Assembly (NCBI GenBank): GCA_963662655.2
Contig: CAXXTU010000002.1
Coordinates: 2,304,034-2,368,033 of the forward strand
Direction of reading: 5' to 3'
From: Candidatus Cloacimonadales bacterium
Lineage (GTDB): Bacteria; Cloacimonadota; Cloacimonadia; Cloacimonadales; JAIOQZ01
Length of the DNA stretch: 64,000 bases
Shown here: positions 1 through 19,330 of the stretch, piece after piece
How positions within the stretch are numbered: position 1 is the first letter of the stretch
Layout: each line of letters begins with the position of its first letter
The notes under the pieces: model-generated
The model's input: the letters and a program-made list of their open reading frames with translations, nothing else
Database searches by the model: none
Told to the model about the DNA's origin: nothing
Translations under genes and position numbers: made by a program

Positions 1-1889
1 CTGAAGAACACGATAACGAAATCAGCGCTCGTTATCCAGTTATCGAATATTTCAGCCCAATTATCTTCATAAGCAACCATCGAATTGAAAATGACCGAAA
101 CCAGAACGCTTATCGCCATCCATATAAGAGAAATGGGAAAGATCACCCAGTAATATGAAGCAGCTTTGAAAAAGTTAGTCCAGTACAGTTGTGGGTAAAT
201 ATGCCTTGAATTGATACCGAACAATTCATGAAAGACGCCTTTTTGGTCGTCCGATAAACCATCCCAGAGATGTAGCGAAATCAACTTTCGAAAAACAAAC
301 AACAGTATGAACATGATCGCCAGGAAGGAGTCCTGTTGAAGCATGACTGACCAATGATAGGCCGTACCAACGGGCTGCGATGTAAAAAAAACGACCTGAT
401 TGATCGTCAGCACTAAAATGCATGTCGACAAGCCCAGGATAAACTCGATAGAGTTCTTCCGAACATAGACTCTCAAGTAGAATAAAACAAAACATATTGC
501 GCAAAAAATTACGAAAGAAATAATTCCCCAAATCAGTTCGAATACTTGCGCCATTTTCGTGATTCCGGTCCAACGGGTAAAAAACCACCAGTTTATAAAC
601 AGAAAAACAAACGTAAATATTTTTGTCCTGTATCGGTGCAGGTTATCTCTTTTCTTTCCGGGATCGACTTCTCTTGTGAAATGGTACAGCAACAGGATTG
701 CCAATATCGTAAATCCTTGGGATAAAAATGCCCCCATCCCCATTTTTATTGTATTATCGACCTCTAAGCTCTTGAGAGTCATGGAGATAAATCCCCAAAT
801 CAGTTCGAATACTTGCGCCATTTTCGTGATTCCGGTCCAACGGATGAAGAACAACCAGTTTACAAGCAGAGAAGCAAACGTACAAATATGTAACCTGTGT
901 CGGTTCAGGTTATCTCTTATCTTTCCGGGATCGACTTCTCTTGTGAAATGGTACAACAACAGGATTGCCAATATCGTAAATCCTAGGGATAAAAATGCCC
1001 CCATCCCCATTTTTACTGTATCATCGACCTCTAAGCTCAGGGGGATCATGGAAAACTTCACCAGGATTTCCGCATATGATTTCAACGGCATTAACAAAAC
1101 CGTAATGATGATCGAACATATCGCCGATCCAACAAGGAACCTCGCAGCACCCAGGCTCCAATGGCCGAATATTGATCGAAAATTCCTTATCGACTCTGCA
1201 GATTTTTTATATCTGAGCAAATTCGGGATCAAGGTGACCAAAATGCCTAACAGCAGGTTTTGAAGGATCAAGTACCTTGCTTCTACAATCTCCGTAGGGA
1301 TGAACTGGAGTGAGGCATAAGTAATATTAAGGGATATAAAAGAATTTAAAAAAAGGGAGTAGATTGCGAAAGCAGTCCGGTTTCTTTTTCTAACATTCCG
1401 AATTGCCATCATAGCTGCCGCGATACCGATCATAATCCAAACAGATAGAAAGGCTCTATGCCAGACAGAATACTGACGACCGGACATCTCGGTCAAACTT
1501 ACATAGAGAGCGAGGGTATTGACGAACAACACGATCGACATCCAAATCAAGCGTTTCTTTTCTCTCTTTTTCGGAAAGCGACTATGTTTGAAGTAAACCA
1601 AACTAGATGCCAGGCAAAGCGTAACAATTACATTGTAGGGGACAGACGCCCCCAAGAGAGTAAAATCACTGTAGGAAGATGATCCCTCTAGAAATGCTAA
1701 TTTCATCAAGACAGGGGATAACATCGATATGAGGCAGATTAGAACTGTAATTATCGCCAGTCCATTATACAAGTTGTTTGTTTTACGCACCTCGCGGAAA
1801 AGTACTGTTTTCCTTGCTCTGCTGATCCAATCGTGTTCTTTCTCTTTATAGAATGTTTCGAAATCATACTTATCTTTTACTGGCAGCAT
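1..1889 (-). CDS. Large polytopic membrane protein, at least 629 aa; the C-terminus runs off the window edge. Last gene of the SIR2/HD operon. Absent from the supplied ORF track.
   Basis: Manual reverse-complement translation from the ATG at 1889-1887 (GAGGGGAAAC directly upstream) is stop-free for 629 codons down to position 3. The protein begins MLPVKDKYDFETFYKEKEHDW. It has many hydrophobic helices, e.g. GLAIITVLICLISMLSPVLM, LIWMSIVLFVNTLALYV, WIMIGIAAAMMAI. It was probably not listed because no stop codon lies inside the window. Confidence 0.6.
   Translation of the reverse strand, partial: MLPVKDKYDFETFYKEKEHDWISRARKTVLFREVRKTNNLYNGLAIITVLICLISMLSPVLMKLAFLEGSSSYSDFTLLGASVPYNVIVTLCLASSLVYFKHSRFPKKREKKRLIWMSIVLFVNTLALYVSLTEMSGRQYSVWHRAFLSVWIMIGIAAAMMAIRNVRKRNRTAFAIYSLFLNSFISLNITYASLQFIPTEIVEARYLILQNLLLGILVTLIPNLLRYKKSAESIRNFRSIFGHWSLGAARFLVGSAICSIIITVLLMPLKSYAEILVKFSMIPLSLEVDDTVKMGMGAFLSLGFTILAILLLYHFTREVDPGKIRDNLNRHRLHICTFASLLVNWLFFIRWTGITKMAQVFELIWGFISMTLKSLEVDNTIKMGMGAFLSQGFTILAILLLYHFTREVDPGKKRDNLHRYRTKIFTFVFLFINWWFFTRWTGITKMAQVFELIWGIISFVIFCAICFVLFYLRVYVRKNSIEFILGLSTCILVLTINQVVFFTSQPVGTAYHWSVMLQQDSFLAIMFILLFVFRKLISLHLWDGLSDDQKGVFHELFGINSRHIYPQLYWTNFFKAASYYWVIFPISLIWMAISVLVSVIFNSMVAYEDNWAEIFDNWITSADFVIVFF
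526..1059. repeat. In-frame tandem duplication (2 x 267 bp = 2 x 89 codons) inside the membrane-protein gene
   Basis: The motif ccccaaatcagttcgaatacttgcgccattttcgtgattccggtccaacgg occurs at 526 and again at 793. The unit ends are near-identical and the middle has diverged. On the minus strand it encodes SLEVD[DN]T[VI]KMGMGAFLS.GFTILAILLLYHFTREVDPGK..DNL...WTGITKMAQVFELIWG twice. Confidence 0.85.
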
Positions 1890-1953
1890 AGTTTCCCCTC
1901 ATTTATTGCATTCGATAAAATTTTCAGTTTCTGATCCGTTTTTCGTAGCGATG

Positions 1954-3129
1954 TCAGATATCCCTTCGGGATACTTGAAGAGTCGCACAGAAAAGGAGGT
2001 AATTCACCCCAAAAGAGTTATACTGTGTCAGTTTAATCTGGTTTGCAGATAAACGGTATCGTATATTGATAAACCTCCTGTTCAGGCGATCGAAATCCAT
2101 ATTGAACACGTCCAGAAAAATATCACTGAGTTCAGTCGTGGATAGATTCGTGCTGAAATGGATACTATTCTTGCACAATCTCCGTTTGTCGTTCATGAGT
2201 TTATTCAAGTCAGACCAGGGGTGATTGTCGCTTGTTTCAATGTGCGAGTACTTTTCTATCAGAGCTTGTTGATAAGGTATTTTAGCCCATTCAGGATAAC
2301 TTAGTTGCAGAGTATCCAATCCTGCATAGTAATGACCATGATCGCTGTAAAACTGGACTTTATCATTACTTTTCCTTGTTGTTTTAGATGAGGATATTCC
2401 ATCCGGAAGACACATGAATCTTGGAATCAACCTCCATTTCATCTTATTTGGTTTTTTAGGAGATGATCGAAACCGAAAAAGCCCAATGATCCATGGTTTT
2501 TTGCGGAAAAGACCACAATTGATAGAGTGCAGCAGCACGGTTCGAATCGGAAGACGGAAACTTTTTCTTAGGTACATTAAAGCATTTAGTGGGTGGGGAT
2601 GTTTTGTACTTGAAAGATACTCGCTGAACGTACCGGTCAATTTCCGATGTGGCATCAATAACCAGAAGGCATATAGATTGCAGATCAACTCGACGACATT
2701 ATGGTCGAACAGCGTATTGTTTTCGGAGCAAGTGTGGCGGTAGAAATCAATATACCGCCTCAAGTACAAATGGCCGAGTTCGTGGGCAATGAAGCTTCGC
2801 TCCAAAGGTTCCAATTGGTCACCAAGCTCGAATGGGCGATTGCTTGAGAAATCCAGAATTTGTTGTTGATATCGATTCCTCCCCTGTATTGCAATCTCAT
2901 ATTCAATGAATTGATCTTGTCTTTTTTTCCCTAACTGCAGCAACACGGCTGGTGCACCATAAATGCTCATTGCATCAGGGTTGTATCTTATCCGATTGAC
3001 ATGAAAGCAGCGCATGGCCTGGATTATGGGATCACAAGTAGATTCAAACGGACAGATGTCCCTGATGTGATCGGTAATATGCTCAGAGAATACCGTCTGT
3101 AGTTCGTAATCAAAGTAAATGTTTCGCAT
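1954..3129 (-). CDS. ImmA/IrrE-family (peptidase M78 / DUF955) Zn-metallopeptidase domain protein with a ~230-aa C-terminal domain of unknown function
   Basis: HExxH motif ERSFIAHELGHLYL (aa 116-120) is followed ~30 aa later by ELICNLYAFWLLMP. This matches the family signature HELGH...E..aN.FA..LLMP. The start lies 14 nt after the upstream stop. Confidence 0.75.
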   Translation of the reverse strand: MRNIYFDYELQTVFSEHITDHIRDICPFESTCDPIIQAMRCFHVNRIRYNPDAMSIYGAPAVLLQLGKKRQDQFIEYEIAIQGRNRYQQQILDFSSNRPFELGDQLEPLERSFIAHELGHLYLRRYIDFYRHTCSENNTLFDHNVVELICNLYAFWLLMPHRKLTGTFSEYLSSTKHPHPLNALMYLRKSFRLPIRTVLLHSINCGLFRKKPWIIGLFRFRSSPKKPNKMKWRLIPRFMCLPDGISSSKTTRKSNDKVQFYSDHGHYYAGLDTLQLSYPEWAKIPYQQALIEKYSHIETSDNHPWSDLNKLMNDKRRLCKNSIHFSTNLSTTELSDIFLDVFNMDFDRLNRRFINIRYRLSANQIKLTQYNSFGVNYLLFCATLQVSRRDI

Positions 3130-3143
3130 GAAGTTTTTGTGGT

Positions 3144-4313
3144 CTATGTCTTATTCGCTTCATCGTACCGATTGAACAATTCTTCCAACTGGATTTTGCT
3201 TGTATTAGCAAGACACACAAAAGGATTTTGAGAGTTCCTATACGATGAGTTCTTTACTTTCTTTGCAGCCACTGCGCTTACAACATCAATCAGTTTCGTG
3301 AAATCCCTATCCGAATGAATCGTCTCAGCAAAAACCTCATGTAATCTTCGGAGTTCACTGGTTTCGGTTCTGACACTCATGTTGAATCTCTTTTTCAATT
3401 CTTGCATGCTGTTGTCGTTGACTGCTTTCAGTTGTCCCGGAATCCATACTCTTTGGATGATCTCACCCTTTTCTGGATGCAATACCCAAGAATCATTTGA
3501 AGAATTGATATAGAAATCTTGTTCAAGGTAATTATTAATCCCTATGCTAGTGAACAAGTTTTTGAGCGCATCGTCCTCCACGATACTGTCTGGAGTCTGA
3601 CTGAAAAATTCGATCATGAGTGGATACTGCAGGCAGATTTCTGGGCTCGTGTCACATCTGCAAAGTAGGTAATACTTCCTGCACAGGGATTCGTCGTGGA
3701 AACTCGGATATGGCCCGTATAGGCAACCCCTGAAATCGCTTTGTATGGTAGTTTTCATTTCGTTTACTGGGTTCGGGGTCAGAAATCTCCTCCGGAAGGT
3801 CATGAAGAAAAGGTGTGTATCCTGGGGAGCTAGTTGCATAATACGGCGGTAGCTAAGCCTTCCGAGAATTTTTGGAAAAGCTGGACCTTGAACGATGATG
3901 AAATGACTGGATTTATTATCGGGTTTTTTAATCTTCTTCTCCTCTTTCTTGCTCGCCTCAGCTTCCCTTATGCGTTTCACGCACTTGAGGATTTCTCTAA
4001 CAAGTGCATCCGCAAGCATCCTCTCGAAAGCGGCATCGATCAGTTTGACTTGTTGCAACCACTCCGTATTCTTGGGAGAGAGCGTCGATTGAGCTTCAGG
4101 ATAGTACCCTCCAATACCAGAAATCCCCATCGTTTCCATAATACCCATTTCGGGGAATGGAACGAACTGCGTTTGTGGTTCCCAGTCGAGAATATCGTTG
4201 TCGATATCCTTGGAATCGTCCCCTTCCGAGCTTGTTGTGGACGAAATACTGATAGCCACTCGAGATGGTGTTATAAACCATGAATATCCAATCCAGTACA
4301 AGGTTGTCATCAT
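3144..4313 (-). CDS. Hypothetical protein (no domain recognised); acidic N-terminus, lysine-rich linker, Cys-rich patch CRKYYLLCRCDTSPEIC
   Basis: Long ORF with a strong SD (AAAGGAGGT) upstream of ATGATG. The ATG at 4313 overlaps the upstream TGA by 1 nt. The track start at 4316 is a TTG. Confidence 0.6.
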   Translation of the reverse strand: MMTTLYWIGYSWFITPSRVAISISSTTSSEGDDSKDIDNDILDWEPQTQFVPFPEMGIMETMGISGIGGYYPEAQSTLSPKNTEWLQQVKLIDAAFERMLADALVREILKCVKRIREAEASKKEEKKIKKPDNKSSHFIIVQGPAFPKILGRLSYRRIMQLAPQDTHLFFMTFRRRFLTPNPVNEMKTTIQSDFRGCLYGPYPSFHDESLCRKYYLLCRCDTSPEICLQYPLMIEFFSQTPDSIVEDDALKNLFTSIGINNYLEQDFYINSSNDSWVLHPEKGEIIQRVWIPGQLKAVNDNSMQELKKRFNMSVRTETSELRRLHEVFAETIHSDRDFTKLIDVVSAVAAKKVKNSSYRNSQNPFVCLANTSKIQLEELFNRYDEANKT

Positions 4314-6556
4314 CAAACCTCCTTTAGGTGAATGCCTTTGTCGAAACAGACTTTCTGGAACCGATCCTTGAGATATTCACGGCCAACCGTATTCGACATC
4401 GGGTCGATCAGAATGATCCTTAACTTATACGCGACAGGTATGTTTGTCCTGAAATCTACTTGATGTAGTGGGATTGAAGCTGGTGTTTTGACAGACCAGC
4501 TTGCCGGGTCGCCCTCGGGGACATAAAACATTTCGTTGACAATCGGTCTTTTCCCGACCTTGATCACTCTTTTCTCAGGGTAGCCGCATACATGAAATGG
4601 CCCGATAACATCTACGAGTAATCTTCCTGGATGCTCAGCCTCGATCTGTCTCCCAATCTCAAAAATTTCCCGTTTTTTCTCATTCAGCCACGATTCGGCT
4701 TCATGCACCTTCTTGATATGCGAAGGAGCTCTTAGTATGTATGGCCCACCGAAGCATAGCATCGTAAATATTCTATCAAGCCATTGACCCGAGTTGTAAT
4801 ACGATTCGGAGTAATGAGGCGGATTCGATGACTTTCTGTCATGATCATAGATTCCATCATGACTCCAGCTTGTTATAAACGATTTATCGATAACAAGGCA
4901 GCATAGATTGAGGATTTGCTCGTAGATAGATTTCTGTTTGCCCGAGCGGCTGTGCTGATCCGCTGCCCAAATTCCGATCTCGAGTAGAATTTTCACTTCG
5001 AGTTGTAAATCTTCAGATTTACTTCTTGAAACAAACGGAATGAGCCTTTTGTGGGCCCCTTTTATCACTGAATCCTTATCGCCGTTGTTCAGGTTTTCCC
5101 GGAATGCGCATGCCCATGGAAACTCCTGATCGATCATTCGATATGTCTCAGCTATGGCACAGGCAAGCTTGAGGGTGCCAAAATCCGTGAAATATCGATA
5201 AATACGGCTCGCGGTCGATGCTTTTTGATCCAGTGAAACTTGCCCATTTTCTTCTTCCGCCAATTTCCCTTTTTTCGCTTTGCAGTCCTTTTTAGCTTCC
5301 TTTTTTTCTTCATTATTGCAATATCTGTGCGAAAAATCCCGATACTCCATGTAGTAGGTTAGATCGTTCAGGAACTGATCAAGGTATGGAGATTCGAGCT
5401 TGCGCTCTTCATTTAATACATTCGTAACGGTCTGTTCAACGACACCTTTTCGGAATAACTCTGCGAATTTTTCGTGGTTATCATCTTTGCCATTGTCTGC
5501 ACTCGATAAAGAAAAAAAGGATTCGACTGCTTCGTTCGAAAATCTTAGGATGAAATACGAGCACAGAATGTATTGCACAATTCTTTCCATCAGTCTCATT
5601 CTCGGGGAAAAGTATAACGTATTATAAAGGTAACTCCGCTCAGAGAGAAACCTGTAAGCAGCAACAGCCGATTTCCCGTGAAGGAAAATCTGTCCACCCT
5701 CAGTAGTAATCTCCTGGCCACTCAAGAAGTCCTTGAGCCACTGCATTGTATCACCCTGTCTGCCGGTTAATCCCATCCATTGCTGATCGCGAAAGATATA
5801 GTCGATCTTATCCGCATCGAACGGGCTGTTCATGATGCAATCGAGCCATGTGATCCCGCTTACGCCATCGAGCAATCTCTCGTACTCCATGAACTCCTCA
5901 AACGCTCTGTTACGGTTCTTCTCTTGTTCTTCAGCGCTACCGGAAACATCTTCTTTCATTGTTTCCTTGATCAGAGAGAGAAGCCTTATGCGCGTAAGTG
6001 TCTCATGGTGGTATGGCATATCGTTGAACGACCAGTGCAATTCACCGAAGACACGCTCGATTAAATGGGAAAAAGGAATATGCCCTATATCGTGCATTAA
6101 GGCGGTTATCACCAATCTTTTTCTCCAATCCTTGAATCTGTCTTTCAGTTCATCATCGTTTTTCAGTTCAGATATCGTTAGCATGCACTTCTGTAGATAC
6201 TTCACCCATGTTTCCGCGACGCGCATGACTCCTAGCGAGTGATTCAGTCTTGTATGTGTTGTTTGCACTTTCTTAGGGTCTTCGGGATTGAGCCAGTAAT
6301 CCTGAAGCGCAAGCTGATGAATCCTGTCTAGCATTGACTTCTGCTTGTTCTGCTGATCGGTAATCTTGTTGTACAGAACCAGAAGTTGCTCGCAGTCATC
6401 ATCTACGAAACGTTTTATGCTGATATCTATGAAGTTCTGGTCGGATGTACCACTTCCAGGTCGTGAATTGCATTTCGTTACGATGAAACTTTTCTCAATT
6501 TCCGTATCCGTGGGCCACAGCCCGTCTCCCGGTAAGATTTTTTTATATTTCACCAT
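4313..6556 (-). CDS. HD-domain phosphohydrolase of the SAMHD1/dNTP-triphosphohydrolase type, with a ~480-aa C-terminal extension
   Basis: Motifs RLNHSLGV (H106), ALMHDIGHIPFSHLIE (H155 D156) and DADKIDYIFRD (D247/D251). These parallel the SAMHD1/COG1078 signature H..HD.GH.PFSH..D.DK.DY..RD. No Walker A or DExH helicase motifs were seen, so it is not Cas3. Confidence 0.8.
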   Translation of the reverse strand: MVKYKKILPGDGLWPTDTEIEKSFIVTKCNSRPGSGTSDQNFIDISIKRFVDDDCEQLLVLYNKITDQQNKQKSMLDRIHQLALQDYWLNPEDPKKVQTTHTRLNHSLGVMRVAETWVKYLQKCMLTISELKNDDELKDRFKDWRKRLVITALMHDIGHIPFSHLIERVFGELHWSFNDMPYHHETLTRIRLLSLIKETMKEDVSGSAEEQEKNRNRAFEEFMEYERLLDGVSGITWLDCIMNSPFDADKIDYIFRDQQWMGLTGRQGDTMQWLKDFLSGQEITTEGGQIFLHGKSAVAAYRFLSERSYLYNTLYFSPRMRLMERIVQYILCSYFILRFSNEAVESFFSLSSADNGKDDNHEKFAELFRKGVVEQTVTNVLNEERKLESPYLDQFLNDLTYYMEYRDFSHRYCNNEEKKEAKKDCKAKKGKLAEEENGQVSLDQKASTASRIYRYFTDFGTLKLACAIAETYRMIDQEFPWACAFRENLNNGDKDSVIKGAHKRLIPFVSRSKSEDLQLEVKILLEIGIWAADQHSRSGKQKSIYEQILNLCCLVIDKSFITSWSHDGIYDHDRKSSNPPHYSESYYNSGQWLDRIFTMLCFGGPYILRAPSHIKKVHEAESWLNEKKREIFEIGRQIEAEHPGRLLVDVIGPFHVCGYPEKRVIKVGKRPIVNEMFYVPEGDPASWSVKTPASIPLHQVDFRTNIPVAYKLRIILIDPMSNTVGREYLKDRFQKVCFDKGIHLKEV

Positions 6557-6558
6557 AA

Positions 6559-8160
6559 TTAATCCACTAAATCCTTGAGGCTTTCGGTTAGATCAAGAGA
6601 ACCATCTGGTGTCAAGATTGTTACGAAACTCCCTTTCAATAATGAATTCCCCGTGTTTTCAACTGCCTTGATTTTGCTGAGCAAAGAAAGGGTTGGGGTA
6701 TCCTTATTCTTCCGACCCCAATTGTACCACGGAATTTCGAGTTTCCAGGCCATGTTAGCCAGATAATCAAGAATTGTTGAATCAGAATTCCCGGAGAAGC
6801 CGATTGTGCAAACACAGGAAATCTGCGATCCCAATACCCTCCATATCTCACTCATAATTTCCCCGATCTCGATATCCTTAACAACATAACCGGGGAATGA
6901 TATCGATATGGACCTGCGAGAACCACACTCGGGACAATGCTGAATTTTCTCGGCAACTTCCTTGAGTTTTTCAATCTCATCTTTCGGCAACGATTTATAA
7001 TGTTTTAAATCAGGAAAAAGCCCATCGTTCAGGGGCCCAATCAATGAGTTATATACGATCTCGATGTATTTTTTGAAGATGCTGATCTCATTCTTATTCC
7101 CACTGGAACCGTTGGGATCATTTTTATAGAAAATCCTGGCTTCCTCATTCTGATTCCGGCCAGAATTCTTATCATCTTCGTTAATGCGATGTAAAAGAAA
7201 AAAATTATCCCAGGTGCCATCCTCTACTGAGTCCATAATGCCTTTTATCTTGATATTCAGAGGCTGATTTGATTCTCGCAGCGCTTCAAAGACGGATATC
7301 TCTTTGTTGTAATTCGAGCAAAGGGTGTTCGAGCATACTACATGGTAAACATCACCTCGAAGTGTAATGATCCAGGGGCGTCCTTTATCTTTACCCACCT
7401 TGCTGTTGTGAGGTATCTTGGAAATCGCCTCTTTGCCGCTTACGACAATGCAGGGAATTTCATCCTTTGTGTTTAATTCTCGTGTCAAGGCGAGTGGGAT
7501 GGCACCATCGAAATTTGTCGTTAGCAGAATTATGTTCTGTCCAAGAAGCCTTTGTTTTTTTTCGCAAATGATTTCTCGGATCGACCTGTACATCTGGCAT
7601 GCTATATCGGTAACGGATTTTGGGGGATCAATATTATCAGCCTGTTTTCTTCTTGCTTTTGATGGATATTTACCTTCCGGAGATGACACGGATTCCTTCC
7701 AATCATTTTCCTTCATTTGAGCAATCACATCCATCTTGAATATCCAATCATAAAGAAAACTATTGCAGAATAACTCCCAAAGTTTGCCTTGCTTTTTCAA
7801 TTCACTGAAAAATTCTGCTTGGATAGGACGTGTTGGATACCGACCCTCTTTAACATGTTTCACGACAAGAAGGAATACTTCACTCTGGCGCATTTTTTTT
7901 GCAGCGTCCATGATTTTAATATTCCCTGCCCTCCCCAAAGCAATTTCGTTGATTACATAAATCGCGTGGTAGTATTCTTTGATAACTATTGGCGTTGCCC
8001 CAGATCCTAGAAGAAAAAGAGGAGCCTTGTTATTTTTCCAGCCTTGCCTAATTGATCTTCTGAGGCAATCAGGTCCGGAGTTGTTTTCAGTTTTTTTCTT
8101 CAATGGATCATCTGTCATTAACATTACCTTGCCATCATGATTATGACATTTTCCTTGCAT
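6559..8160 (-). CDS. SIR2-like (sirtuin/SIR2_2-type) protein with a split Zn-ribbon and a large insertion; catalytic His apparently replaced by Arg
   Basis: Motifs in sirtuin order: PLFLLGSGAT (aa 47-56, GxGxS-like), LLTTNFDGAIP (TTN[YF]D, aa 212-222), ITLRGDVYHVVCSNTLC (LHG-position plus first Cys pair), HCPECG (second Cys pair, aa 408-413), TIGFSGNSD (aa 452-460). The stop lies 2 nt before the HD gene start. Confidence 0.65.
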   Translation of the reverse strand: MQGKCHNHDGKVMLMTDDPLKKKTENNSGPDCLRRSIRQGWKNNKAPLFLLGSGATPIVIKEYYHAIYVINEIALGRAGNIKIMDAAKKMRQSEVFLLVVKHVKEGRYPTRPIQAEFFSELKKQGKLWELFCNSFLYDWIFKMDVIAQMKENDWKESVSSPEGKYPSKARRKQADNIDPPKSVTDIACQMYRSIREIICEKKQRLLGQNIILLTTNFDGAIPLALTRELNTKDEIPCIVVSGKEAISKIPHNSKVGKDKGRPWIITLRGDVYHVVCSNTLCSNYNKEISVFEALRESNQPLNIKIKGIMDSVEDGTWDNFFLLHRINEDDKNSGRNQNEEARIFYKNDPNGSSGNKNEISIFKKYIEIVYNSLIGPLNDGLFPDLKHYKSLPKDEIEKLKEVAEKIQHCPECGSRRSISISFPGYVVKDIEIGEIMSEIWRVLGSQISCVCTIGFSGNSDSTILDYLANMAWKLEIPWYNWGRKNKDTPTLSLLSKIKAVENTGNSLLKGSFVTILTPDGSLDLTESLKDLVD

Positions 8161-8213
8161 AATAATTTGCTTCGAGTAAGCTATATGTAAGTATCATCCC
8201 ATTCCAATAAATA

Positions 8214-8231
8214 TTGACAACATCCTGTCAA
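8214..8231. promoter_or_regulatory. Perfect inverted repeat TTGACA-N6-TGTCAA in the AT-rich region upstream of the SIR2 operon; candidate -35 box and/or operator
   Basis: The plus strand reads ttgacaacatcctgtcaa. On the minus strand the TTGACA (8231-8226) lies 66 nt upstream of the ATG at 8160. Confidence 0.3.
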
Positions 8232-8520
8232 GTTTATTTTGTTATGCATTATTGACTTATTCTTTACCGTTTCCTGCAATCAAGCTAGAGCTTAGTTATG
8301 CATAAAGCAAACGAAGTGCCGAAAGCCCTGAAATAAAATCTGGAGAATCAAATTGGATTTTGTGGCTGAAACTTCAGGTTTCATTGGCCATTTTACGATG
8401 TCGAGAAACACTGAAATCCCAATAAATGCTATGCCATTTTTGCACTTTCCGTAAAGCACTTCCATCAACCGCATAAATATTGGATAACGACATGAGCGAA
8501 ATTGAGTAAAATTAAACTTC

Positions 8521-8549
8521 TTGACATAACAAATCTTTGCGTTCTTAAT
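8521..8549 (+). promoter_or_regulatory. Putative sigma70-like promoter (TTGACA-N17-CTTAAT) for the 8577 gene
   Basis: TTGACA at 8521-8526 and an A/T-rich hexamer 17 nt downstream. The GGAGG SD and ATG follow at 8577. Confidence 0.35.
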
Positions 8550-8576
8550 TCGATTATCAAAATCCCAGGAGGACGT

Positions 8577-11500
8577 ATGAAACGCACCATGCTTTTCTCA
8601 CTGCTCATTGGAATCTTATTCCCATGTCTTGCCTTTGCTTCCGGCAGTTCGCAGCAACCCGATGAAATCATGGACATCAACGATCGTTTCCGCAATGTAC
8701 CAGCTGTTTCTTCAGCCACTGATCCAATGCCGATGCTCTACTATGCATCCTTTGGCGTAGCCGGAATTGACGAATGCGATATGGAAGAACCCCCATACGC
8801 AGTTACCGCCTCGATTATCAGGTTCAAGATTGAACACTCCGATATGGGTATGCGCCTTTTAGACGAGCAGACTCTTTACATGGATGGAAACTTCGTCGCT
8901 GCAAACGACAAAATTGATTATCTCAATTGTTACAATCAAGCCGACCTTGCTGGTATTCAAAACGACTTTACTACACATGCACGCGTCCGTTATGAAAGTG
9001 GCACAGGATTCATGGCAAGTCCTGTATATTGTGGTAACTTCATCCTGGTTCTGAATAAAAGTGGTCTCTTGATGGCAATTGATTCTGACTTCACGGGAGG
9101 TATAAACAATTACACAGAAGATGTCGTAATCAACAGTATCGACCTCAGGGCGATAGAGAGAGAAGAAATCAGCTTTATGTCACATGCTCTCGAGTATGGA
9201 TCAACCCCTGTGGTTATTGGAAACTATATCTATGTCGCCGGTTTGCAATCGATATTCAAGATTCAGATATCGAATTTCCAGGTCGTTAATTTCCACAACT
9301 TTAACGAACTGGCAAGTGCAAGCCTTGAGGGCATCAGAACCTTTTTCACACCATTGGTCTGGGATTTAAACAGCAATAATGATATTTATCTAACAATATC
9401 GACATCCAGATTCCCGTCACTAATGCCTCCATCGAATATTGTGTATGTGCTGGATCAGAATCTCGAAATCGTGTACACAGAAAACGGCTCAGGTTTAGTT
9501 AATGGAAGCAATCCAACTGTAGATTATAGTGGTTACATATATTATCCTGCAACAACTTTTCTAAGATCATCTCGAGAAACCAGGTCAGTACTTTCGGATT
9601 TCGACTATGGGTTTATTAATACTCCACAGGGAATTCAGAACTTTCAAGGTTCGATTCTTTCCGATTTCTCAGGTAACCTGATTTATAGTGCAAGTACATT
9701 CGATGGGTCTCAATACAGTCTAAGCACCTATTCTATATCAAGAGATTATAACTACTTAAACTCTAACAATGACCCAATTTTCGAGACTGAAGTCGCCGAA
9801 CTTGTGTTTGATCACTTCTTGAACACAGAGCCGTATTTAAACAATCATGGCTTTATCTGTGAAGATATTGATCATGACAGATCCTTGACGGTGTCCATTA
9901 GCTCACACCTTGGTAACGGAGTAGGCTGGCCTCCAGTTGAAGAAATCCCTTTTTGGTATAACGTTTACGATCACGAGACAAGCGATATTACTTTGGGATT
10001 TGTCGTATGTGAATATCAGACCTCCACCCATTCAAGTGGTTCTGAAATTATAAATGACACTGCGACCTATGGTGGCCTTGCACCATACAAGACCAACGAA
10101 TATTATGTTAATGCCACTTTCGGCACTGAAACTGGTGGACTAATGGCTTGGCCACATTATATGGATGTATCTCAGTACGGCCTTTCTTACTCCACGAAAC
10201 TTGAAATAACCCAGCCCGTCATTTCAAACACCAGCCACAGCAAATTTCAGCGGGATGTGACCAATAACTGCTCCTACACCTGGGCAGACAACTTCAAAGT
10301 TGCGATTGGCTTTATACCGCAGGACACTCAGATAGAGAAGGTTTTTGCCAACGGATATGCCAGAAATGCCACGCTTGATCCCGAGACAAATCTTCTTACA
10401 GCAACATTCGAGAAACTTCTCGCTCATCCCAATTACACTGTCGGATTCCGCTACACCGACAATAATGGCACACATTCAGCCTCTATTGGACATATTAATG
10501 TTCCGGAGATGCAACCGCTTGTCCTCAGCTTTGTACAGGACCTTGTTGTTGATGATGGCGATGTAGTCAACATCGATGAAAACAATTTGTGTTTCAACTC
10601 CATTACGATCAATTCAGGTGGAATTCTGAATATCAACGGCAGTGGCATATATTCCGAAACGATCAATATCAATAATGGGGCCGTATTGAATATCAATTCC
10701 GGGGCAAGTATTTCATCCTATGAGTGTTATTGCAAAAACGAACAAAACAACACCAATCCATCCGAGATCAATCTTGTATCAAATGGAAGGCTCATCACGA
10801 CCTGGCTGTTGCTTGATGAATGGGATGATGTTTATACTCAAATAGAAGGCAGCAATCAGAACAACGTAATCGTTTCAGATCTTTATTTGGGAATTGGAAG
10901 TGTGATGGAAATCCTCGAATCAACTGGATCTGGCACAACGAACGCAACTGTTACCATATCGAGAGCAGTAGGCGATCATATCAGAGGGACTATTCTCACG
11001 TCTGCGGTTTTGACAATAACCAATCGACTCGACATAGCATATCCCATAAGCATCTCTGTTCTCAATAATGGAAAACTGGTAGCATCTTCAACCTCCACTC
11101 ATTCTGGAGCAACAGCTGATATCAACATGTTTGGATCAGATAGTCCATTGGTTATTGCGGATGGAGGTGAGCTTGATCTACAGAACAAGGGACAACTTCT
11201 AATGGATGGTTCAACAGGATATGATCCCATTCTGGATATTTCTGGTACTCTGAGACTTAATAACTCGAGCGAGTTGCTATGCAGAGATGGGCAGATAATT
11301 CTTGAAGATGATACGTCCGTTTTCCTCTCAGGAAGATCATTGATCGAAGTGACAGATAATGGCGAATTGGATATCTACGACGATGTCACCATCACGGGCC
11401 ATACACCGATTGACTTTGCGAATCATCTGCCTGGCGACAGAATCGTTATCAAGAATGGCGGAGCTTTGGGAGTCGATCCAAGCAATCCCTCAGGTTTCTG

Positions 11501-13304
11501 TCACAACTTGACCGTACAGAGCGATACGTCTGAGCGTTGGGAAGGTATCGAGTTTCACGCACCCGAATACCAAGAACAAGATTACCTGTATTTTGAAAAT
11601 GCGAACATCTCCAGAGTACGTACCTTGAATATCAGTGAACGCGGCGAATCGGAAGTATACGTTAAATTCCTGAACTCTCAATTCGAAGATTGCGAGTACG
11701 GATTGAAGCTAACAAGGCTTACTTCTGTTATTCTCGATAATACGAGCTTCTCGGAATGTGAAACCGGGATTTTTTGCTATGCAGTAACGGATGTATCTCT
11801 TCTTAGCACAGACCCATCGGCCGACAAGGCAGTCTTCTCTAAGAATGAGTACGGGCTTATCATTCTAAGTGCAGATGAGGATGATCCCGAAACAATCTAT
11901 GACTACACCTTCGCCGATAACAGTGAAATTGGTTTATGGATTGAGGATAGTCGTTTCAACATAGGTGGAACATTCACACAACCAGACATCTACACTGAGA
12001 TCGGAGCTTGCTCATTTACTTCAAACGGAACAGCGTTGAATGCGTCTTTGGGTAGTGCCGATGAATCCGTTATTACCCACAGTAGTTTTACGGATAACAA
12101 CGATGATGCCTTGTTCATAGCCGAAATGAATTTACGTATCAACCAGAATACCATCAGCGATAATGGAAGGCAGGGAATCTGGGGATATCGCGGTGGCTTC
12201 GCCGATGTAAGAGCAAATACTGTCTCAAACAACGGCGGTACAGAAATCCTTGGTAGCGGATCGGTTTTCATCAACATGCGACAAACAGAACATGAAGATC
12301 GAAACATTGTTACCGATACGGGATTCGATCCGATCATAATACCGTCGATCCCTGATTTCTGGGATCCCGATGAAATGGATGTATATGTTATCGCTCGCAG
12401 CGACTTGGGAAGAGAGGTGGACGTAACGGGAAATGAATTCACCCCTCATCCATCGATCCACCCCGAGCGATATTATCCCTCCGTAAGAGATTTCATCTTC
12501 GATGGTCGGGCTTTCAGCGCTCAAGAACTTTTTGACGCTGGACTCGCCGCTTATGGCTATAGCGTCTACACGACAGCCAAAAACAACTTCACAAACCTTG
12601 TAACGTCATATCCCGAATCAAACGAAGCGGTGGCGTCTCTGATCTATTTCCTCTACATCGCATCGAAGACAGACAAGGATTATAAAGCAATGCGCCAGGA
12701 ACTGAACGCTCTGGTTTCCAAGGATTATCCTGATCTATACAAGGAAAAGGAGAGAGTCGTTACGGAATCCTTTATGTATGAGAAGAATTACATCGAAGCA
12801 ATCGCAAGGCTGGAAGAGGTTATAATAGAGCCAGATACGAGAATCGACAGTGTTATGGCTTTGGCCGATCAGGGTTACTGCTACGTGCAGCTCGCTGAAT
12901 CCGGCACAAGGGCATTACCCAATAAATGCACGGTGAAGACGAAAACAATCGAGGAATATCTCGAATATATGAAATCCCTTCGTATGTTCCTGAACGGCGA
13001 CGCGGAGTCCTCACAGGCGCCTGCATACGTGTTTGCACTTGACGCGAACTATCCCAACCCCTTCAATCCTACCACGACGATCTCGTATTCGATCCCGAAG
13101 GACGACAAAGTCGTCTTGAAGGTGTACAATATCAAAGGACAGCTCGTAAAGACGCTGGTCAACGATCACCTCGAAGCTGGAAAGCACAAAGTCGTCTGGA
13201 ATGGCGACAATCAGATCGGCAAGAACGCATCGTCAGGCATCTATCTGTACCGTCTCGAGTCCGGTGGGAAGTCGAAAGCGCAGAAAATGCTTTTACTCAA
13301 ATAA
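8577..13304 (+). CDS. Giant secreted protein with parallel beta-helix (PbH1-like) repeats and a T9SS/FlgD-Ig-like C-terminal sorting domain
   Basis: The track ORF starts at a TTG (8502). The likely start is the ATG at 8577 after GGAGG, giving the signal peptide MKRTMLFSLLIGILFPCLAFASG. The C-terminus is NYPNPFNPTTTISYSIP...VLKVYNIKGQLVKTL...SGIYLYRLESGGKSKAQKMLLLK. Confidence 0.85.
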   Translation: MKRTMLFSLLIGILFPCLAFASGSSQQPDEIMDINDRFRNVPAVSSATDPMPMLYYASFGVAGIDECDMEEPPYAVTASIIRFKIEHSDMGMRLLDEQTLYMDGNFVAANDKIDYLNCYNQADLAGIQNDFTTHARVRYESGTGFMASPVYCGNFILVLNKSGLLMAIDSDFTGGINNYTEDVVINSIDLRAIEREEISFMSHALEYGSTPVVIGNYIYVAGLQSIFKIQISNFQVVNFHNFNELASASLEGIRTFFTPLVWDLNSNNDIYLTISTSRFPSLMPPSNIVYVLDQNLEIVYTENGSGLVNGSNPTVDYSGYIYYPATTFLRSSRETRSVLSDFDYGFINTPQGIQNFQGSILSDFSGNLIYSASTFDGSQYSLSTYSISRDYNYLNSNNDPIFETEVAELVFDHFLNTEPYLNNHGFICEDIDHDRSLTVSISSHLGNGVGWPPVEEIPFWYNVYDHETSDITLGFVVCEYQTSTHSSGSEIINDTATYGGLAPYKTNEYYVNATFGTETGGLMAWPHYMDVSQYGLSYSTKLEITQPVISNTSHSKFQRDVTNNCSYTWADNFKVAIGFIPQDTQIEKVFANGYARNATLDPETNLLTATFEKLLAHPNYTVGFRYTDNNGTHSASIGHINVPEMQPLVLSFVQDLVVDDGDVVNIDENNLCFNSITINSGGILNINGSGIYSETININNGAVLNINSGASISSYECYCKNEQNNTNPSEINLVSNGRLITTWLLLDEWDDVYTQIEGSNQNNVIVSDLYLGIGSVMEILESTGSGTTNATVTISRAVGDHIRGTILTSAVLTITNRLDIAYPISISVLNNGKLVASSTSTHSGATADINMFGSDSPLVIADGGELDLQNKGQLLMDGSTGYDPILDISGTLRLNNSSELLCRDGQIILEDDTSVFLSGRSLIEVTDNGELDIYDDVTITGHTPIDFANHLPGDRIVIKNGGALGVDPSNPSGFCHNLTVQSDTSERWEGIEFHAPEYQEQDYLYFENANISRVRTLNISERGESEVYVKFLNSQFEDCEYGLKLTRLTSVILDNTSFSECETGIFCYAVTDVSLLSTDPSADKAVFSKNEYGLIILSADEDDPETIYDYTFADNSEIGLWIEDSRFNIGGTFTQPDIYTEIGACSFTSNGTALNASLGSADESVITHSSFTDNNDDALFIAEMNLRINQNTISDNGRQGIWGYRGGFADVRANTVSNNGGTEILGSGSVFINMRQTEHEDRNIVTDTGFDPIIIPSIPDFWDPDEMDVYVIARSDLGREVDVTGNEFTPHPSIHPERYYPSVRDFIFDGRAFSAQELFDAGLAAYGYSVYTTAKNNFTNLVTSYPESNEAVASLIYFLYIASKTDKDYKAMRQELNALVSKDYPDLYKEKERVVTESFMYEKNYIEAIARLEEVIIEPDTRIDSVMALADQGYCYVQLAESGTRALPNKCTVKTKTIEEYLEYMKSLRMFLNGDAESSQAPAYVFALDANYPNPFNPTTTISYSIPKDDKVVLKVYNIKGQLVKTLVNDHLEAGKHKVVWNGDNQIGKNASSGIYLYRLESGGKSKAQKMLLLK

Positions 13305-13615: not shown

Positions 13616-14559
13616 CGGTTCACCCCCACATGCGTGGGGAATACTATCCACTGGCTGGAAACCGGAGACGGAAACCCGGTTCACCCCCACATGCGTGGGG
13701 AATACTACGATGGAACGAACCGCGAGCAATTCGAGAACGGTTCACCCCCACATGCGTGGGGAATACACGATTGAACATATCCTCAGAAAAAAACACGCCG
13801 GTTCACCCCCACATGCGTGGGGAATACGGATTGGGCGACCCGCGCAACCTGCCGCATTTCGGTTCACCCCCACATGCGTGGGGAATACGACATGGTCAAC
13901 GCTGATCCTGCGAATACGTTCGGTTCACCCCCACATGCGTGGGGAATACTCATCGAATGGCTTTTGGGTTGTTTCGCTTGTCGGTTCACCCCCACATGCG
14001 TGGGGAATACGGTTACTGGAAGCAGACCGTCACCGATTGCCTCGGTTCACCCCCACATGCGTGGGGAATACGACTCCGCGTAGGTTTGTATAACGTAGGT
14101 CGACGGTTCACCCCCACATGCGTGGGGAATACATCCAACTTTTCACCCGCTTCAGGCGCGAAAACGGTTCACCCCCACATGCGTGGGGAATACTGATTTG
14201 AGAAATCGTAGAAATAGCGGGATCCCGGTTCACCCCCACATGCGTGGGGAATACACAATCGTACCATTCAGGTACCCAAGCTTGTCCGGTTCACCCCCAC
14301 ATGCGTGGGGAATACTTGACAACACCACGGTAATCGAAACGTACGGTCGGTTCACCCCCACATGCGTGGGGAATACTAAAAGTCGTCTGCCCTGCGTCTG
14401 TCGAAGCGCGGTTCACCCCCACATGCGTGGGGAATACTAGAAGTTTTGCACGTAACAGAACGCATCGACCGGTTCACCCCCACATGCGTGGGGAATACGT
14501 CAGTGCGAGCGCGAACGATCCTCAGCAGGTCGGTTCACCCCCACATGCGTGGGGAATAC
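13616..14559 (-). CRISPR. Type I-E CRISPR array: 16 identical 29-nt repeats, 15 unique 32-nt spacers, exact 61-nt period
   Basis: The plus-strand repeat is CGGTTCACCCCCACATGCGTGGGGAATAC at 13616, 13677, ... 14531. Its reverse complement, GTATTCCCCACGCATGTGGGGGTGAACCG, matches the sense orientation of the E. coli I-E repeat (GAGTTCCCCGCGCCAGCGGGGATAAACCG). The array is therefore read on the same strand as the cas genes. Confidence 0.97.
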
Positions 14560-14566
14560 TCTTGAT

Positions 14567-14842
14567 TTAATCGGGCTTCGAGGGCCTCGTCAGTAGCTTA
14601 AGTCCTTCCCAGTCTGTGACGATTCTGCTGTTGGCTCCCCAGAAGTCAACACAAAAACCCTGTTCGTTGTTGGTCGACCACAGCATCATGCAAGCGCCGC
14701 CTTTGGAGTCGGCGCAAACCTTCTTCCAGAGGCGATCGCGCACCATCGCGGATACGTTGCCGACGAACACGCCTGCCTTCACTTCGAGCAGCCAGCGCGT
14801 CAGCTCACCCCTGAGCGAGACCGGAACCTTTTCGAGAATCAT
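14567..14842 (-). CDS. cas2: Cas2 (type I-E)
   Basis: MILEKVPVSLRGELTRWLLEVKAGVFVGNVSAMVRDRLW parallels E. coli Cas2 ([30 protein letters not shown]). The track start at 14920 lies inside cas1. The ATG at 14842 or the GTG at 14851 is more plausible. Confidence 0.9.
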   Translation of the reverse strand: MILEKVPVSLRGELTRWLLEVKAGVFVGNVSAMVRDRLWKKVCADSKGGACMMLWSTNNEQGFCVDFWGANSRIVTDWEGLKLLTRPSKPD

Positions 14843-14847
14843 GACGT

Positions 14848-15801
14848 TCACTCTTCCTCCTTGTCTCCACCTTCTCCATAGGAAACGCCGCCGGCGCATT
14901 CGCCGGTCACGGGGTCCCACAAACCACCCGGCTTCGCGGGATCGGCATCGAAGTCGTCCTCGGCATCCTCGGGCGGTTTAGCCCCTAAGATGTCGTGGAT
15001 ATCCTTCACGATCCGCTTGAGCAGCCCCTGTTGATGGAACATGTCTCTACAGCGGATACGCACCTCGCGGCTGAGGTTTCTATCCACCTCCGCGACGGTC
15101 TGGAAGGCGACCGGGATCGTCAGTTCCGTCTTGTAGAGGTCCGCGACATCATAGACGAACGAGAGCTGCTTGCCGGTATGCACGAACCCGATTGCTGGGG
15201 AATATCCCGCCGCCACGATCGCCGCATGGGATATTCCGTAGAGGCATGAATTCGCCACCGACAACGCCTTGTTGATCGGATCGGCGTTCTTCCAGTCGCG
15301 CCGGTCATAGTTCCGACCCTTCCACGGGACGCCGGTATCGCGCGAGGCACGGAAGTAAGCGTCACGAACTCGAACGCCTTCCATGCCCCTGATTTGCTCC
15401 AGTGTCAGCGACGGATCAGGCTTCTCCGGGAAGCGGAATTCGTACATCCTGCGCACGATGTAGAGGCGGGACTTCTCGTTCGCCCAGAGCTTCACCTGCC
15501 TGAGAAGATGAGAAGCCTTCCGGGTCGCGCCGCTGCCCGATGCGTAGAACCTTACGCCCTGTTCGCCGCTCCAGACGACCAGGCAACCGCAATCTGCGAG
15601 CGTCGTGATCGCCGCGTGCGTAATGCTCGTGCCCGGTCCGAGCAACAATACGGAGAGATTGTCGCAGGGAATCGGGGTCAACCCGCGAAGATCGTGGACG
15701 GCGATTGCCTTGTCTTCCCGATCGATGATTCCGTGCTCGATGTAGAGCCAGCTCCACTTGTCACGGACCTTGGGGACTTGGTGATAATCCTTTGTCAGCA
15801 T
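14848..15801 (-). CDS. cas1: Cas1 (type I-E integrase)
   Basis: Collinear similarity to E. coli Cas1, e.g. LLGPGTSITHAAI, VVWSGEQGVRFYASG, AGYSPAIGFVHTGKQLSFVYDVADLYK. SD AGGAGG upstream. Confidence 0.95.
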   Translation of the reverse strand: MLTKDYHQVPKVRDKWSWLYIEHGIIDREDKAIAVHDLRGLTPIPCDNLSVLLLGPGTSITHAAITTLADCGCLVVWSGEQGVRFYASGSGATRKASHLLRQVKLWANEKSRLYIVRRMYEFRFPEKPDPSLTLEQIRGMEGVRVRDAYFRASRDTGVPWKGRNYDRRDWKNADPINKALSVANSCLYGISHAAIVAAGYSPAIGFVHTGKQLSFVYDVADLYKTELTIPVAFQTVAEVDRNLSREVRIRCRDMFHQQGLLKRIVKDIHDILGAKPPEDAEDDFDADPAKPGGLWDPVTGECAGGVSYGEGGDKEEE

Positions 15802-15811
15802 GGATCACCTC

Positions 15812-18828: not shown

Positions 18829-18840
18829 GGGTTCCTCCTG

Positions 18841-19329: not shown

Positions 19330-19330
19330 C

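Follow-up and report, generated by a model that had tools for sequence, protein, structure and literature searches.

In this work we examined a run of five co-oriented genes, designated A to E, at one end of a 64,000-nt stretch of the genome of a Candidatus Cloacimonadales bacterium (GCA_963662655.2, contig CAXXTU010000002.1, positions 2,304,034-2,368,033 of the forward strand; the whole stretch is called the window below). We propose, with a probability of roughly 55%, that positions 1954-8160 of the window hold one copy of a cassette that is rare and horizontally mobile, consists of three components, is of the abortive-infection type and is directed against phages or other mobile genetic elements (MGEs). 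Its components would be a divergent sirtuin (SIR2)-like domain coupled to a SAMHD1-type HD domain (genes A and B), a conserved partner protein (gene C) and an ImmA/IrrE-family M78 peptidase (gene D). That A-B, C and D form a conserved functional cassette is very probable and a role in defence is reasonably probable, while the specific mechanism that is described below is put forward tentatively. An earlier sequence-only reading of the same DNA had interpreted all five genes as one candidate defence operon. Its observations were largely right and its interpretation was partly right, being off on the boundaries of the unit, on the SIR2 chemistry and on the protein that it had called unknown.

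The proposal draws on the conservation of the gene order outside the window. The profiles of A, B, C and D, which were built from the window and five other loci, were searched against all open reading frames (ORFs) of 55 loci (L001-L055), while the later loci were judged using gene calls and Pfam (L061, L062 and the P0015 contig) or a profile search of selected genes (L056-L058). C and then D directly followed A-B in every locus that had an A-like domain and enough downstream sequence, the HerA-type cassettes described below apart. In total, there were about 11 M78-type loci with a constant gene order, and the named metagenome-assembled genomes (MAGs) among them came from five phyla; the hosts were MAGs of Cloacimonadota, Gammaproteobacteria, Planctomycetota, Fimbriimonadaceae and Bryobacterales. 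The intergenic gaps in the cassette loci ranged from -146 to +51 nt and once reached 211 nt. Thus, the synteny in other genomes on which the sequence-only reading had made its proposal depend was found for A-B, C and D, and mobile and defence genes were often adjacent. Sixteen other HD proteins (about 700-1000 aa), whose non-HD regions could not be matched to A even at E<10, had neither C nor D beside them.

In addition, a sister cassette was found, with the fusion gene in first place, a gene for a protein of about 300-350 aa in second place and, where the M78 peptidase would be, a gene for a HerA (DUF87) ATPase. Its hosts were Bacillota (L011), ‘Deltaproteobacteria’ (L056/57) and, probably, Thermodesulfovibrionales. 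The second gene matched the C profile at about 1e-13 in L011 and L056/57 and did not match it in L058 (E=0.6), and it was left unscored in L061 and the P0015 contig; the HerA of L011 matched the PADLOC HerA models at 8e-36. Because HerA replaces the M78 peptidase in these loci, the third position of the cassette can be regarded as a swappable module. Both the scan of the representative genomes of 185,579 species using alignment A3, which yielded about eight cassette loci, and the metagenome scan using C patterns, which yielded two, showed how rare the cassette is. The corresponding viral scan with the C patterns revealed no loci in 2.9 million viral contigs and, hence, no viral origin was seen.

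In most relatives, A and B are the two halves of one polypeptide of about 900-1270 aa. The closest homologues of B (P0003-P0009) are 959-1273 aa long and share 33-43% identity with B over the last two-thirds of their length, while A aligns to the N-terminal ~390-560 residues of the fusions P0003, P0004, P0006 and P0008. In the window, the break is located in the inter-domain linker, about 80 residues ahead of the QLALQ motif that opens the HD region. A similar arrangement was observed in L016, a Bryobacterales MAG, in which A (420 aa) and B (574 aa) are separated by a 5-nt gap, the split point is 53 residues ahead of the equivalent QLALQ motif and both C and D are kept. Since this independent split occurred at another position of the linker, the A|B break is best seen as a natural variant, and a sequencing artefact or obvious decay is unlikely.

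Hydrolysis of deoxynucleoside triphosphates (dNTPs) by the HD domain is the best-supported of the enzymatic activities predicted for the cassette. B matched Pfam HD at 1.3e-7 (32.4 bits; cut-off 22) and the PADLOC dGTPase model at 5.7e-8, the latter partially (~70 residues), and its matches to Cas3-HD were weak. Among the PDB sequences, it matched EF1143 (2o6i) at 7e-8 and a second HD protein at 6.6e-6, and 9mr6 also aligned at the motifs. The motifs that were aligned to EF1143 are H..R..HSLGV, HDxGHxPxSH (HDxGHxPFSH), DADKxDYxxRD and R..Y..Y, and the residues concerned in B are H103/H106, H155-D156, H159, H164, D247-x-D249-K250 and a Y-x-x-x-Y near 309. These catalytic motifs are invariant in the eight fusions of alignment A3. 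The EF1143/SAMHD1 motif class, which is that of dNTP triphosphohydrolases, is therefore kept in full in B, and B is predicted to be such an enzyme; the earlier assignment to the SAMHD1/dGTPase-type HD proteins was confirmed. The profile of the conserved C-terminal region of B (~400 aa) had no match in the PDB. As a separate observation, about eleven SAMHD1-like HD proteins of 865-942 aa (L032, L039, L041, L044-L048, L051, L053 and L054) had a different N-terminal domain of ~370-450 aa without a match to the A profile and no C or D. They were found in Acidobacteriota-lineage, Verrucomicrobia, Actinomycetota-lineage, Dehalococcoidia, Thermoanaerobaculia and unclassified-bacterium MAGs. They may represent a separate fusion family and are possibly the SIR2-dGTPase fusions of Verrucomicrobiota that were mentioned in a survey of dGTPases (PMC13519002).

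Gene A appears to encode a divergent sirtuin-fold domain, whose SIR2 membership rests on the family profile and on motif colinearity. When the window protein was used alone, there was no SIR2 match in Pfam, where the models are PF02146 and PF13289, in PADLOC or in NCBIfam even at E<=1, and a word-indexed homologue search returned only the protein itself. An exhaustive HMMER search revealed 108 relatives among 1.84e9 (1.84 billion) representative proteins. Of the 107 that had a sequence, 42 were at least 780 aa long (HD fusions) and 39 were of a stand-alone size (330-560 aa), and weak Pfam SIR2 or SIR2_2 matches were found in just three of 44 relatives. When a profile of 34 A-domains was compared with the PDB, the top matches were all SIR2 proteins (FAM118B was the best at 8.5e-4, and the SIR2 protein 8yhx had 4e-3), and SIR2-APAZ-like 8in8, DSR2, SIRT5 and KomC were among the further matches. 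The SIR2-like label of the sequence-only reading, accordingly, stands at the level of the family profile and of the colinear motifs and is not reproduced by the single-sequence searches.

The motifs GAGxS, TTNFD (N216/D218) and GFSG (G454-S456-G457) are kept in the order of sirtuins across 44 and 34 sequences. G52, N216, D218, G269, D270, C276, C281, C409, G454 and G457 are invariant; C412 and S456 are invariant in alignment A1 and nearly so in alignment A4; and G54, S56 (T/S; GAGxS), K428 and D460 are also among the invariant or near-invariant columns. The pairs C276/C281 and C409/C412 form a Cys4 ribbon, which would correspond to the Zn-binding module of canonical sirtuins. A large variable insertion separates the two pairs; at residues ~300-400 it is rich in charged residues, comprises ~80-100 aa, is absent in P0003 and longer in P0008/P0069, and in the AlphaFold2 (AF2) model of A, which had a mean predicted local distance difference test score (pLDDT) of 68, the score was below 50 over 304-384. 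In the comparisons with CobB of E. coli, the BLASTP alignment of the relative P0019 spanned GAGxS to NxD (E=0.002), while in hhalign the A family paired TTNFDG with TQNIDN, although only the NxD block was aligned (probability 14%, P=0.002). The local alignment of A and CobB was colinear through the Zn-ribbon cysteines and the GxSG block and placed R268 on the His of the CobB ‘MHG’.

The column of the catalytic His is thus occupied by Arg268 in the window, and across 44 relatives its composition was R31/W9/K3/H1. The sole His was found in P0019, a distant member that was called SIR2 by Pfam. Separately, the L058 fusion was recorded as the only member with the canonical His in the sirtuin ‘HG’ motif. 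In FAM118B, His H206 is required for activity and NAD processing, and the equivalent His has been cited as important for ThsA and SIRT2 (PMC12700824). Because this residue is replaced in A and in 43 of the 44 relatives (R/W/K), canonical NAD+ cleavage is doubtful, and the NAD+ depletion that had been proposed by analogy with ThsA and DSR is not a safe inference. The binding of a dinucleotide is probably retained, and the invariant Asp270 would be the only obvious stand-in for the missing His.

Gene C was always found directly after the fusion gene in the cassette loci, and only five homologues were detected among 5.8e9 (5.8 billion) proteins. The C family profile had no match among the PDB sequences. 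Its AF2 model (pLDDT 63, predicted template modelling score 0.65), which was built on six sequences, has the element order b1-b2-b3-long helix-b4-a-b5, as in RNase-H-like folds. In a Foldseek comparison with the PDB, 27 of the 28 top matches were chains of endonuclease V (EndoV), of Argonaute complexes or of NurA and HerA-NurA complexes, and the remaining one was 5xou_B, a chain of the TtAgo complex whose protein is unnamed. The Argonaute matches comprised MpAgo, human Ago1/2, RsAgo, AaAgo and SPARTA/SPARDA. The E-values started at 2.5e-3 (1e-3 to 1e-2), the probability was up to 0.99 and the TM scores were 0.2-0.35; the viral Foldseek library gave only noise. A PIWI/EndoV/NurA-type RNase-H-like fold is, therefore, moderately supported for C, and the NurA/PIWI-type identity is independently fitted by the sister cassettes because the C-like genes there adjoin herA, which is a signature of nurA. 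The invariant residues across the alignment of C were only P55, E98 and G201, and there were no conserved acidic residues of a nuclease (DEDD/DEDH) on b1 or b4. C would thus be a nuclease-dead sensor or adaptor. Describing this 390-aa protein as lacking a recognisable domain was, thus, correct at the level of sequence, but it need not be featureless, as the predicted fold suggests.

Gene D was always found after C in the M78-type cassettes. It matched Pfam Peptidase_M78 (PF06114) at 3.5e-5 (24.0 bits; cut-off 22), while the PADLOC matches to capP (5e-7, which spanned just 51 profile positions) and RmrA (7e-7) and the NCBIfam match to spr1629 were weak and covered the HExxH core only. Across ten homologues, H116, E117, H120, A154 and P160 were invariant, E147 and C150 were nearly invariant, and the C-terminal domain (~160 aa) was family-specific. 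The motif residues had been placed correctly from the sequence: N216 lies in TTNFD, H155/D156 in HDIGH and H116-E117-H120 in HELGH. No helix-turn-helix (HTH) domain was found by Pfam in A-D, and no CapH-like or XRE HTH partner was conserved beside the cassette loci, where the flanking genes differ. Because neither an HTH domain nor a conserved HTH neighbour was found, D is not the usual transcriptional switch of the CapP/CapH type. The M78 assignment of the sequence-only reading therefore held, while its analogy with CapP was loose. As D and HerA share the same slot across the two cassette types, a post-translational trigger role, and not one in transcriptional control, is suggested for D.

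Gene E does not belong to this unit. Its product has ~12 hydrophobic segments, so that the description as a polytopic membrane protein was right. It had no match in Pfam or NCBIfam, and in PADLOC only CorA was returned, at 0.08. The flanks of L001 and L004-L007 were compared for E and contained no homologue of it, not even in the case of L001, the closest relative, where C shares 49% identity with that of the window. We, therefore, rejected E as a component, and it is a lineage-specific neighbour outside of the conserved A-B + C + D unit, which is narrower than the five-gene unit that was first proposed. E also contains a tandem duplication at 520-1038 (267 nt, 1.9 copies, 91% identity), which corresponds to an 89-aa two-helix transmembrane module with 69 of 89 residues identical and looks like a recent in-frame internal event.

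The coordinates of the features in the window and of the related loci are listed in the table.

Features of the window and of the cassette loci that were compared with it
Feature	Position	Strand	Description
gene A	6559-8160	-	533 aa; divergent sirtuin (SIR2)-like domain protein
gene B	4313-6556	-	747 aa; SAMHD1/EF1143-type HD, dNTP triphosphohydrolase-like
gene C	3144-4316	-	390 aa; conserved partner, predicted RNase-H-like fold
gene D	1954-3129	-	391 aa; ImmA/IrrE-family (M78) zinc metallopeptidase
gene E	3-1889	-	at least 629 aa; polytopic membrane protein, runs past the window edge
intergenic region	8161-8501		between A and the divergent gene for a type IX secretion system (T9SS) cargo; AT-rich; presumed cassette promoter region
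T9SS-sorted proteins	8502-13304, 21758-26200, 26836-28428		three large secreted proteins with a C-terminal Por_Secre_tail
CRISPR array	13617-14559		16 repeats, identical 28-nt core, 61-nt period
cas genes	14848-20815		type I-E
Cas5-HNH	16551-17699		Cas_Cas5d 2.6e-41 and HNH 4.8e-6
M78-type loci			besides the window: L001 (=L002/3/9), L004, L005, L006, L007/8, L010, L012/13, L015, L016, L062
L001	1002-4236		Cloacimonadota MAG JAIOQZ010000039; closest cassette, directly downstream of Tn7-like genes
L004			flanks: KilA-N, two transposases, HepT/MNT, AbiEii
L006			flanks: integrase, DUF5906-family protein, Hachiman HamB (1e-151)
L007			flanks: IS1595; amidohydrolase adjoining
L016			flank: type II methyltransferase
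L011	1207-6210		sister (HerA-type) cassette
L056	1252-7919		sister cassette; directly downstream of a phospholipase D (PLD)-domain protein, an SNF2 helicase and a 1100-1180-aa Eco57I/MmeI-type methyltransferase
L057	778-5997		sister cassette; downstream: Mrr_N and SocA_Panacea genes
L058	257-5181		sister cassette
L061	1770-7658		sister cassette
P0015 contig			sister cassette (JGI 3300075153); upstream genes as in L056

The ORF listing and the direct translation confirmed the five minus-strand genes, A to E, and the tight spacing that had been read from the sequence. The gaps are 2 nt for A/B (junction GAT TAA TT ATG), 0, -1 or +2 nt for B/C depending on the choice among three adjacent start codons, 14 nt for C/D and 64 nt for D/E. 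The GC content of the five-gene stretch is 42.3% (41-44% for the genes) compared with 54% for the cas operon (peaks of 57-60%) and a window mean of 48.5%. Even though the hand count of 33-40% was not reproduced, the low GC content itself was, since the first 8 kb are the lowest-GC segment of the window, ~2.3 standard deviations under the mean of 8-kb windows. The region ahead of A is AT-rich as described, with 31.5% GC over 8161-8290 and 35.8% over 8161-8501. One sigma-70-like match was found at 8220-8193 on the minus strand, but the scans for sigma-70 promoter and terminator consensus sequences were not above the shuffle expectation, and the promoter role of 8161-8501 is thus presumptive. The Rfam and tRNA scans of 1-8500 revealed no match.

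A type I-E CRISPR-Cas locus is located 5.5 kb from the cassette and, as had been noted, only a single gene, which encodes a 1600-aa T9SS-sorted protein, separates it from the five-gene stretch. The three large T9SS-sorted proteins of the window indicate a host of the FCB group or one similar to Cloacimonadota, which agrees with the closest cassette being that of a Cloacimonadota MAG. A solitary CRISPR repeat (crlRNA-like) was searched for near this stretch and none was found. The I-E locus itself contains cas1, a cas6e-like gene, a cas5 gene that is fused to an HNH nuclease domain, cas7, cse2 and cse1 (13617-20815), and no cas3 ORF was seen beside it; it resembles the HNH-Cascade variants that have been reported from the large-scale mining of CRISPR systems.

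The flanks of the cassette differ at every locus. In L001, the Tn7-like genes directly upstream encode a Mu-transposase C-terminal domain protein, a TniB/AAA_22 ATPase and a small HTH-like protein, which suggests that this cassette is transposon cargo. The PLD, SNF2 and methyltransferase genes upstream of two sister cassettes would represent a restriction- or DISARM-like module. Such a neighbourhood pattern is what would be expected of mobile defence cargo. Moreover, because the flanks are different in every locus, the cassette probably travels as cargo and is not a core function of one type of element.

The data show the gene content, the synteny, the fusion/split relationship, the conservation of the motifs, the rarity, the patchy taxonomic spread and the mobile or defence neighbours. 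From these we infer all of the biochemical activities, the way in which regulation runs and the function in defence, and the mechanism that follows is possible rather than probable. The HD domain would be the effector and would deplete dNTPs. The sirtuin-like domain may be an NAD+/nucleotide-binding regulatory or oligomerisation module or, alternatively, a non-canonical catalyst that acts via Asp270, while C might sense nucleic acids or act as an adaptor. D would license the effector as its trigger, probably through proteolysis of C or of an inhibitory segment. In the window, A and B would be translationally coupled split genes. The cleavage of the A-B linker was considered as the activating step and found unlikely; since the natural splits retain D and the HerA-type cassettes have no protease, D would rather act on C or on an inhibitory segment. 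The protease and the HerA motor are both plausible as DNA-responsive triggers. The M78 immune peptidase CapP is reported to be stimulated by single-stranded DNA (PMC13228613), and the ATPase of Sir2-HerA is reported to be activated by DNA ends (PMC13434337).

In its widest form, the proposal is that of an undescribed immune family, in which a His-less sirtuin would act as an NAD+/nucleotide-sensing gate or a polymerisation scaffold for the covalently attached SAMHD1-like dNTPase, controlled by a nuclease-dead Argonaute/NurA-like sensor and an interchangeable trigger (M78 or HerA). Bacteria would then have their own equivalent of restriction by SAMHD1, wired to a PIWI-like sensor. We offer this as a speculative possibility.

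The cassette is likely to be new as an architecture, although it is assembled from known parts. PADLOC 2.0 had no match for A or C and assigned no Thoeris, DSR1, DSR2 or other named system, and no published description of the cassette was found in the literature on SIR2-HD, on SIR2 with SAMHD1 and M78, or on HerA with NurA, SIR2 and HD, which agrees with the earlier statement that no named system matches. The nearest precedent is one sentence in the 2026 survey of dGTPases that mentions fusions of dGTPase with a SIR2-like domain for an archaeon of the Ca. Methanophagales and for Verrucomicrobiota (PMC13519002); this survey described no C, no D or HerA partners, no missing His and no experiments on the fusions. 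Judged by its sequence features, the cassette is a candidate for a multi-gene defence system that targets the nucleotide pool and lacks at least one defining feature of each of its nearest neighbours. It resembles SIR2-HerA (Nezha) in having a sirtuin-family protein and a partner in a compact mobile operon, with HerA itself present in the sister cassettes. However, the window has an M78 protease in the HerA slot and no HerA gene in 1-13300, and the sirtuin of the cassette is coupled to an HD dNTPase-like domain, has the Cys4 ribbon and lacks the catalytic His; moreover, there is an extra PIWI/NurA-like gene. The known defence dGTPases are stand-alone enzymes of ~430-500 aa. B has the same SAMHD1/EF1143 motifs but carries an extra conserved C-terminal region of ~400 aa.

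Similarly, the combination of a sirtuin-family protein with a PIWI-like fold that lacks slicer residues (predicted in the case of C) is reminiscent of SPARSA, i.e., SIR2-APAZ with a short prokaryotic Argonaute (pAgo). In contrast to the short pAgos, C is only 260-420 aa long and has no detectable MID or APAZ and no Pfam Piwi match, and in the cassette the effector carries HD and a protease or HerA is the third component. The HerA-NurA pair is another relative, since the C-like gene of the sister cassettes stands directly upstream of herA, as nurA does, and NurA was among the Foldseek matches of C. Unlike NurA, C has no conserved acidic catalytic residues and no Pfam NurA match, HerA is absent from the window and C is coupled to a nucleotide-pool effector and not to Mre11/Rad50. 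Finally, D belongs, like CapP of the CBASS regulators CapP/CapH and RmrA of RosmerTA, to the M78 peptidases and has kept its HExxH…E motif intact, but it has neither an HTH partner nor a fused HTH and it has a C-terminal domain of its own.

Several observations weigh against the proposed reading. A single-sequence search of the PDB with the window A revealed no significant SIR2 match, and in the Foldseek search the top match of its model, the SIR2 of the SIR2/HerA complex, was not significant (E=0.19), the remaining matches being generic Rossmann folds; because of this, the SIR2 call for A rests on the profile comparison with the PDB and on the motifs. C had no match in Pfam, PADLOC or NCBIfam, including Pfam Piwi and NurA, and its fold was called on a medium-confidence model, a six-sequence alignment and low TM scores. 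The HD matches of B are confined to the catalytic core, and the curated NCBIfam models for dGTPases scored far below their cut-offs (dGTP_triPase 28 bits against 152; antiphage_dGTPase 21-22 bits against 383-400). The split between A and B could reduce or abolish the function in the window genome. All of the cassette homologues come from MAGs or metagenomes. The pooled flanks of L010-L016 include glutathione synthetase, RuvX, aspartate carbamoyltransferase, uracil-DNA glycosylase and MacB/FtsX-type transporter domains, and the amidohydrolase neighbour in L007 was likewise counted among the housekeeping or uninformative neighbours.

The original five-gene explanation, in which a SIR2 NADase depletes NAD+, the HD enzyme depletes dNTPs, the M78 protein senses infection and the membrane protein is an effector or an anchor, is now improbable. 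Its tight spacing and shared orientation, the invariant N216/D218 of TTNFD and the HD and M78 calls all hold, but E has no counterpart in the compared flanks even where C is 49% identical, A and B are a single protein in most relatives and the His of the sirtuin NADases is an Arg here. We attach a similarly small chance to the view that the cassette is decaying in the window genome, with the A|B split as a disrupted fusion whose function has been lost. That most relatives are fused and that A carries a low-confidence insertion of ~80-100 aa between its Cys pairs would fit such a decay, yet none of the four ORFs is truncated and all of their invariant motifs are still present, the stop and start codons overlap tidily in the region TAATTATG within the linker, L016 was split independently elsewhere in the linker while keeping C and D, and 39 of the 107 relatives of A are of stand-alone size.

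A module for the maintenance or regulation of mobile elements, for example a toxin-antitoxin-like addiction or an ImmA-type switch in which a dNTPase toxin is checked by C and/or D, is unlikely, even though it would explain why integrases, transposases and Tn7-like genes are often adjacent. The ImmA/IrrE peptidases are classic MGE switches, and the weak matches of D to antitoxins of the RmrA/spr1629 type and the patchy distribution of the cassette point in the same direction. On the other hand, no HTH repressor is conserved beside D and the upstream genes differ by locus, no cassette was found in the 2.9 million viral contigs and the flanks are never the same, while the distinction between such a module and abortive-infection defence is partly semantic. 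A housekeeping or stress unit that controls the nucleotide pool or processes DNA ends, with a HerA/NurA-like repair function and a dNTPase, has a very slight chance. SAMHD1-type dNTPases can also be homeostatic, as was reported for Dgt of Caulobacter (PMC12186491), HerA-NurA is a machine for DNA-end resection (PMC12977600) and there are housekeeping genes around some of the loci. Against this, about eight loci in the representative genomes of 185,579 species make the cassette extremely rare and patchy, its genomic position is not conserved, no nuclease residues are conserved in C and the GC content in the window is under the genome background. On balance, the three-component cassette with an abortive-infection-type function remains our preferred explanation.

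Should the cassette serve in defence, it would add an architecture of several genes in which the sirtuin and the SAMHD1-type HD, the two nucleotide-depletion folds that are known best, are physically joined. It would also mean that a sirtuin domain has been kept without its catalytic His, with a sensing or scaffolding role such as is debated for the SIR2-like domains of SAMD9/9L, and that a new small PIWI/NurA-like protein is its partner. The natural swap between the ImmA/IrrE protease and HerA modules could show how triggers license effectors, and the family might serve as a bacterial model of SAMHD1-like restriction under regulated control. It is worth mentioning that PADLOC 2.0 does not see the family and that Pfam also misses A and C; with profiles made from the loci in the table, annotation pipelines would be able to detect it.

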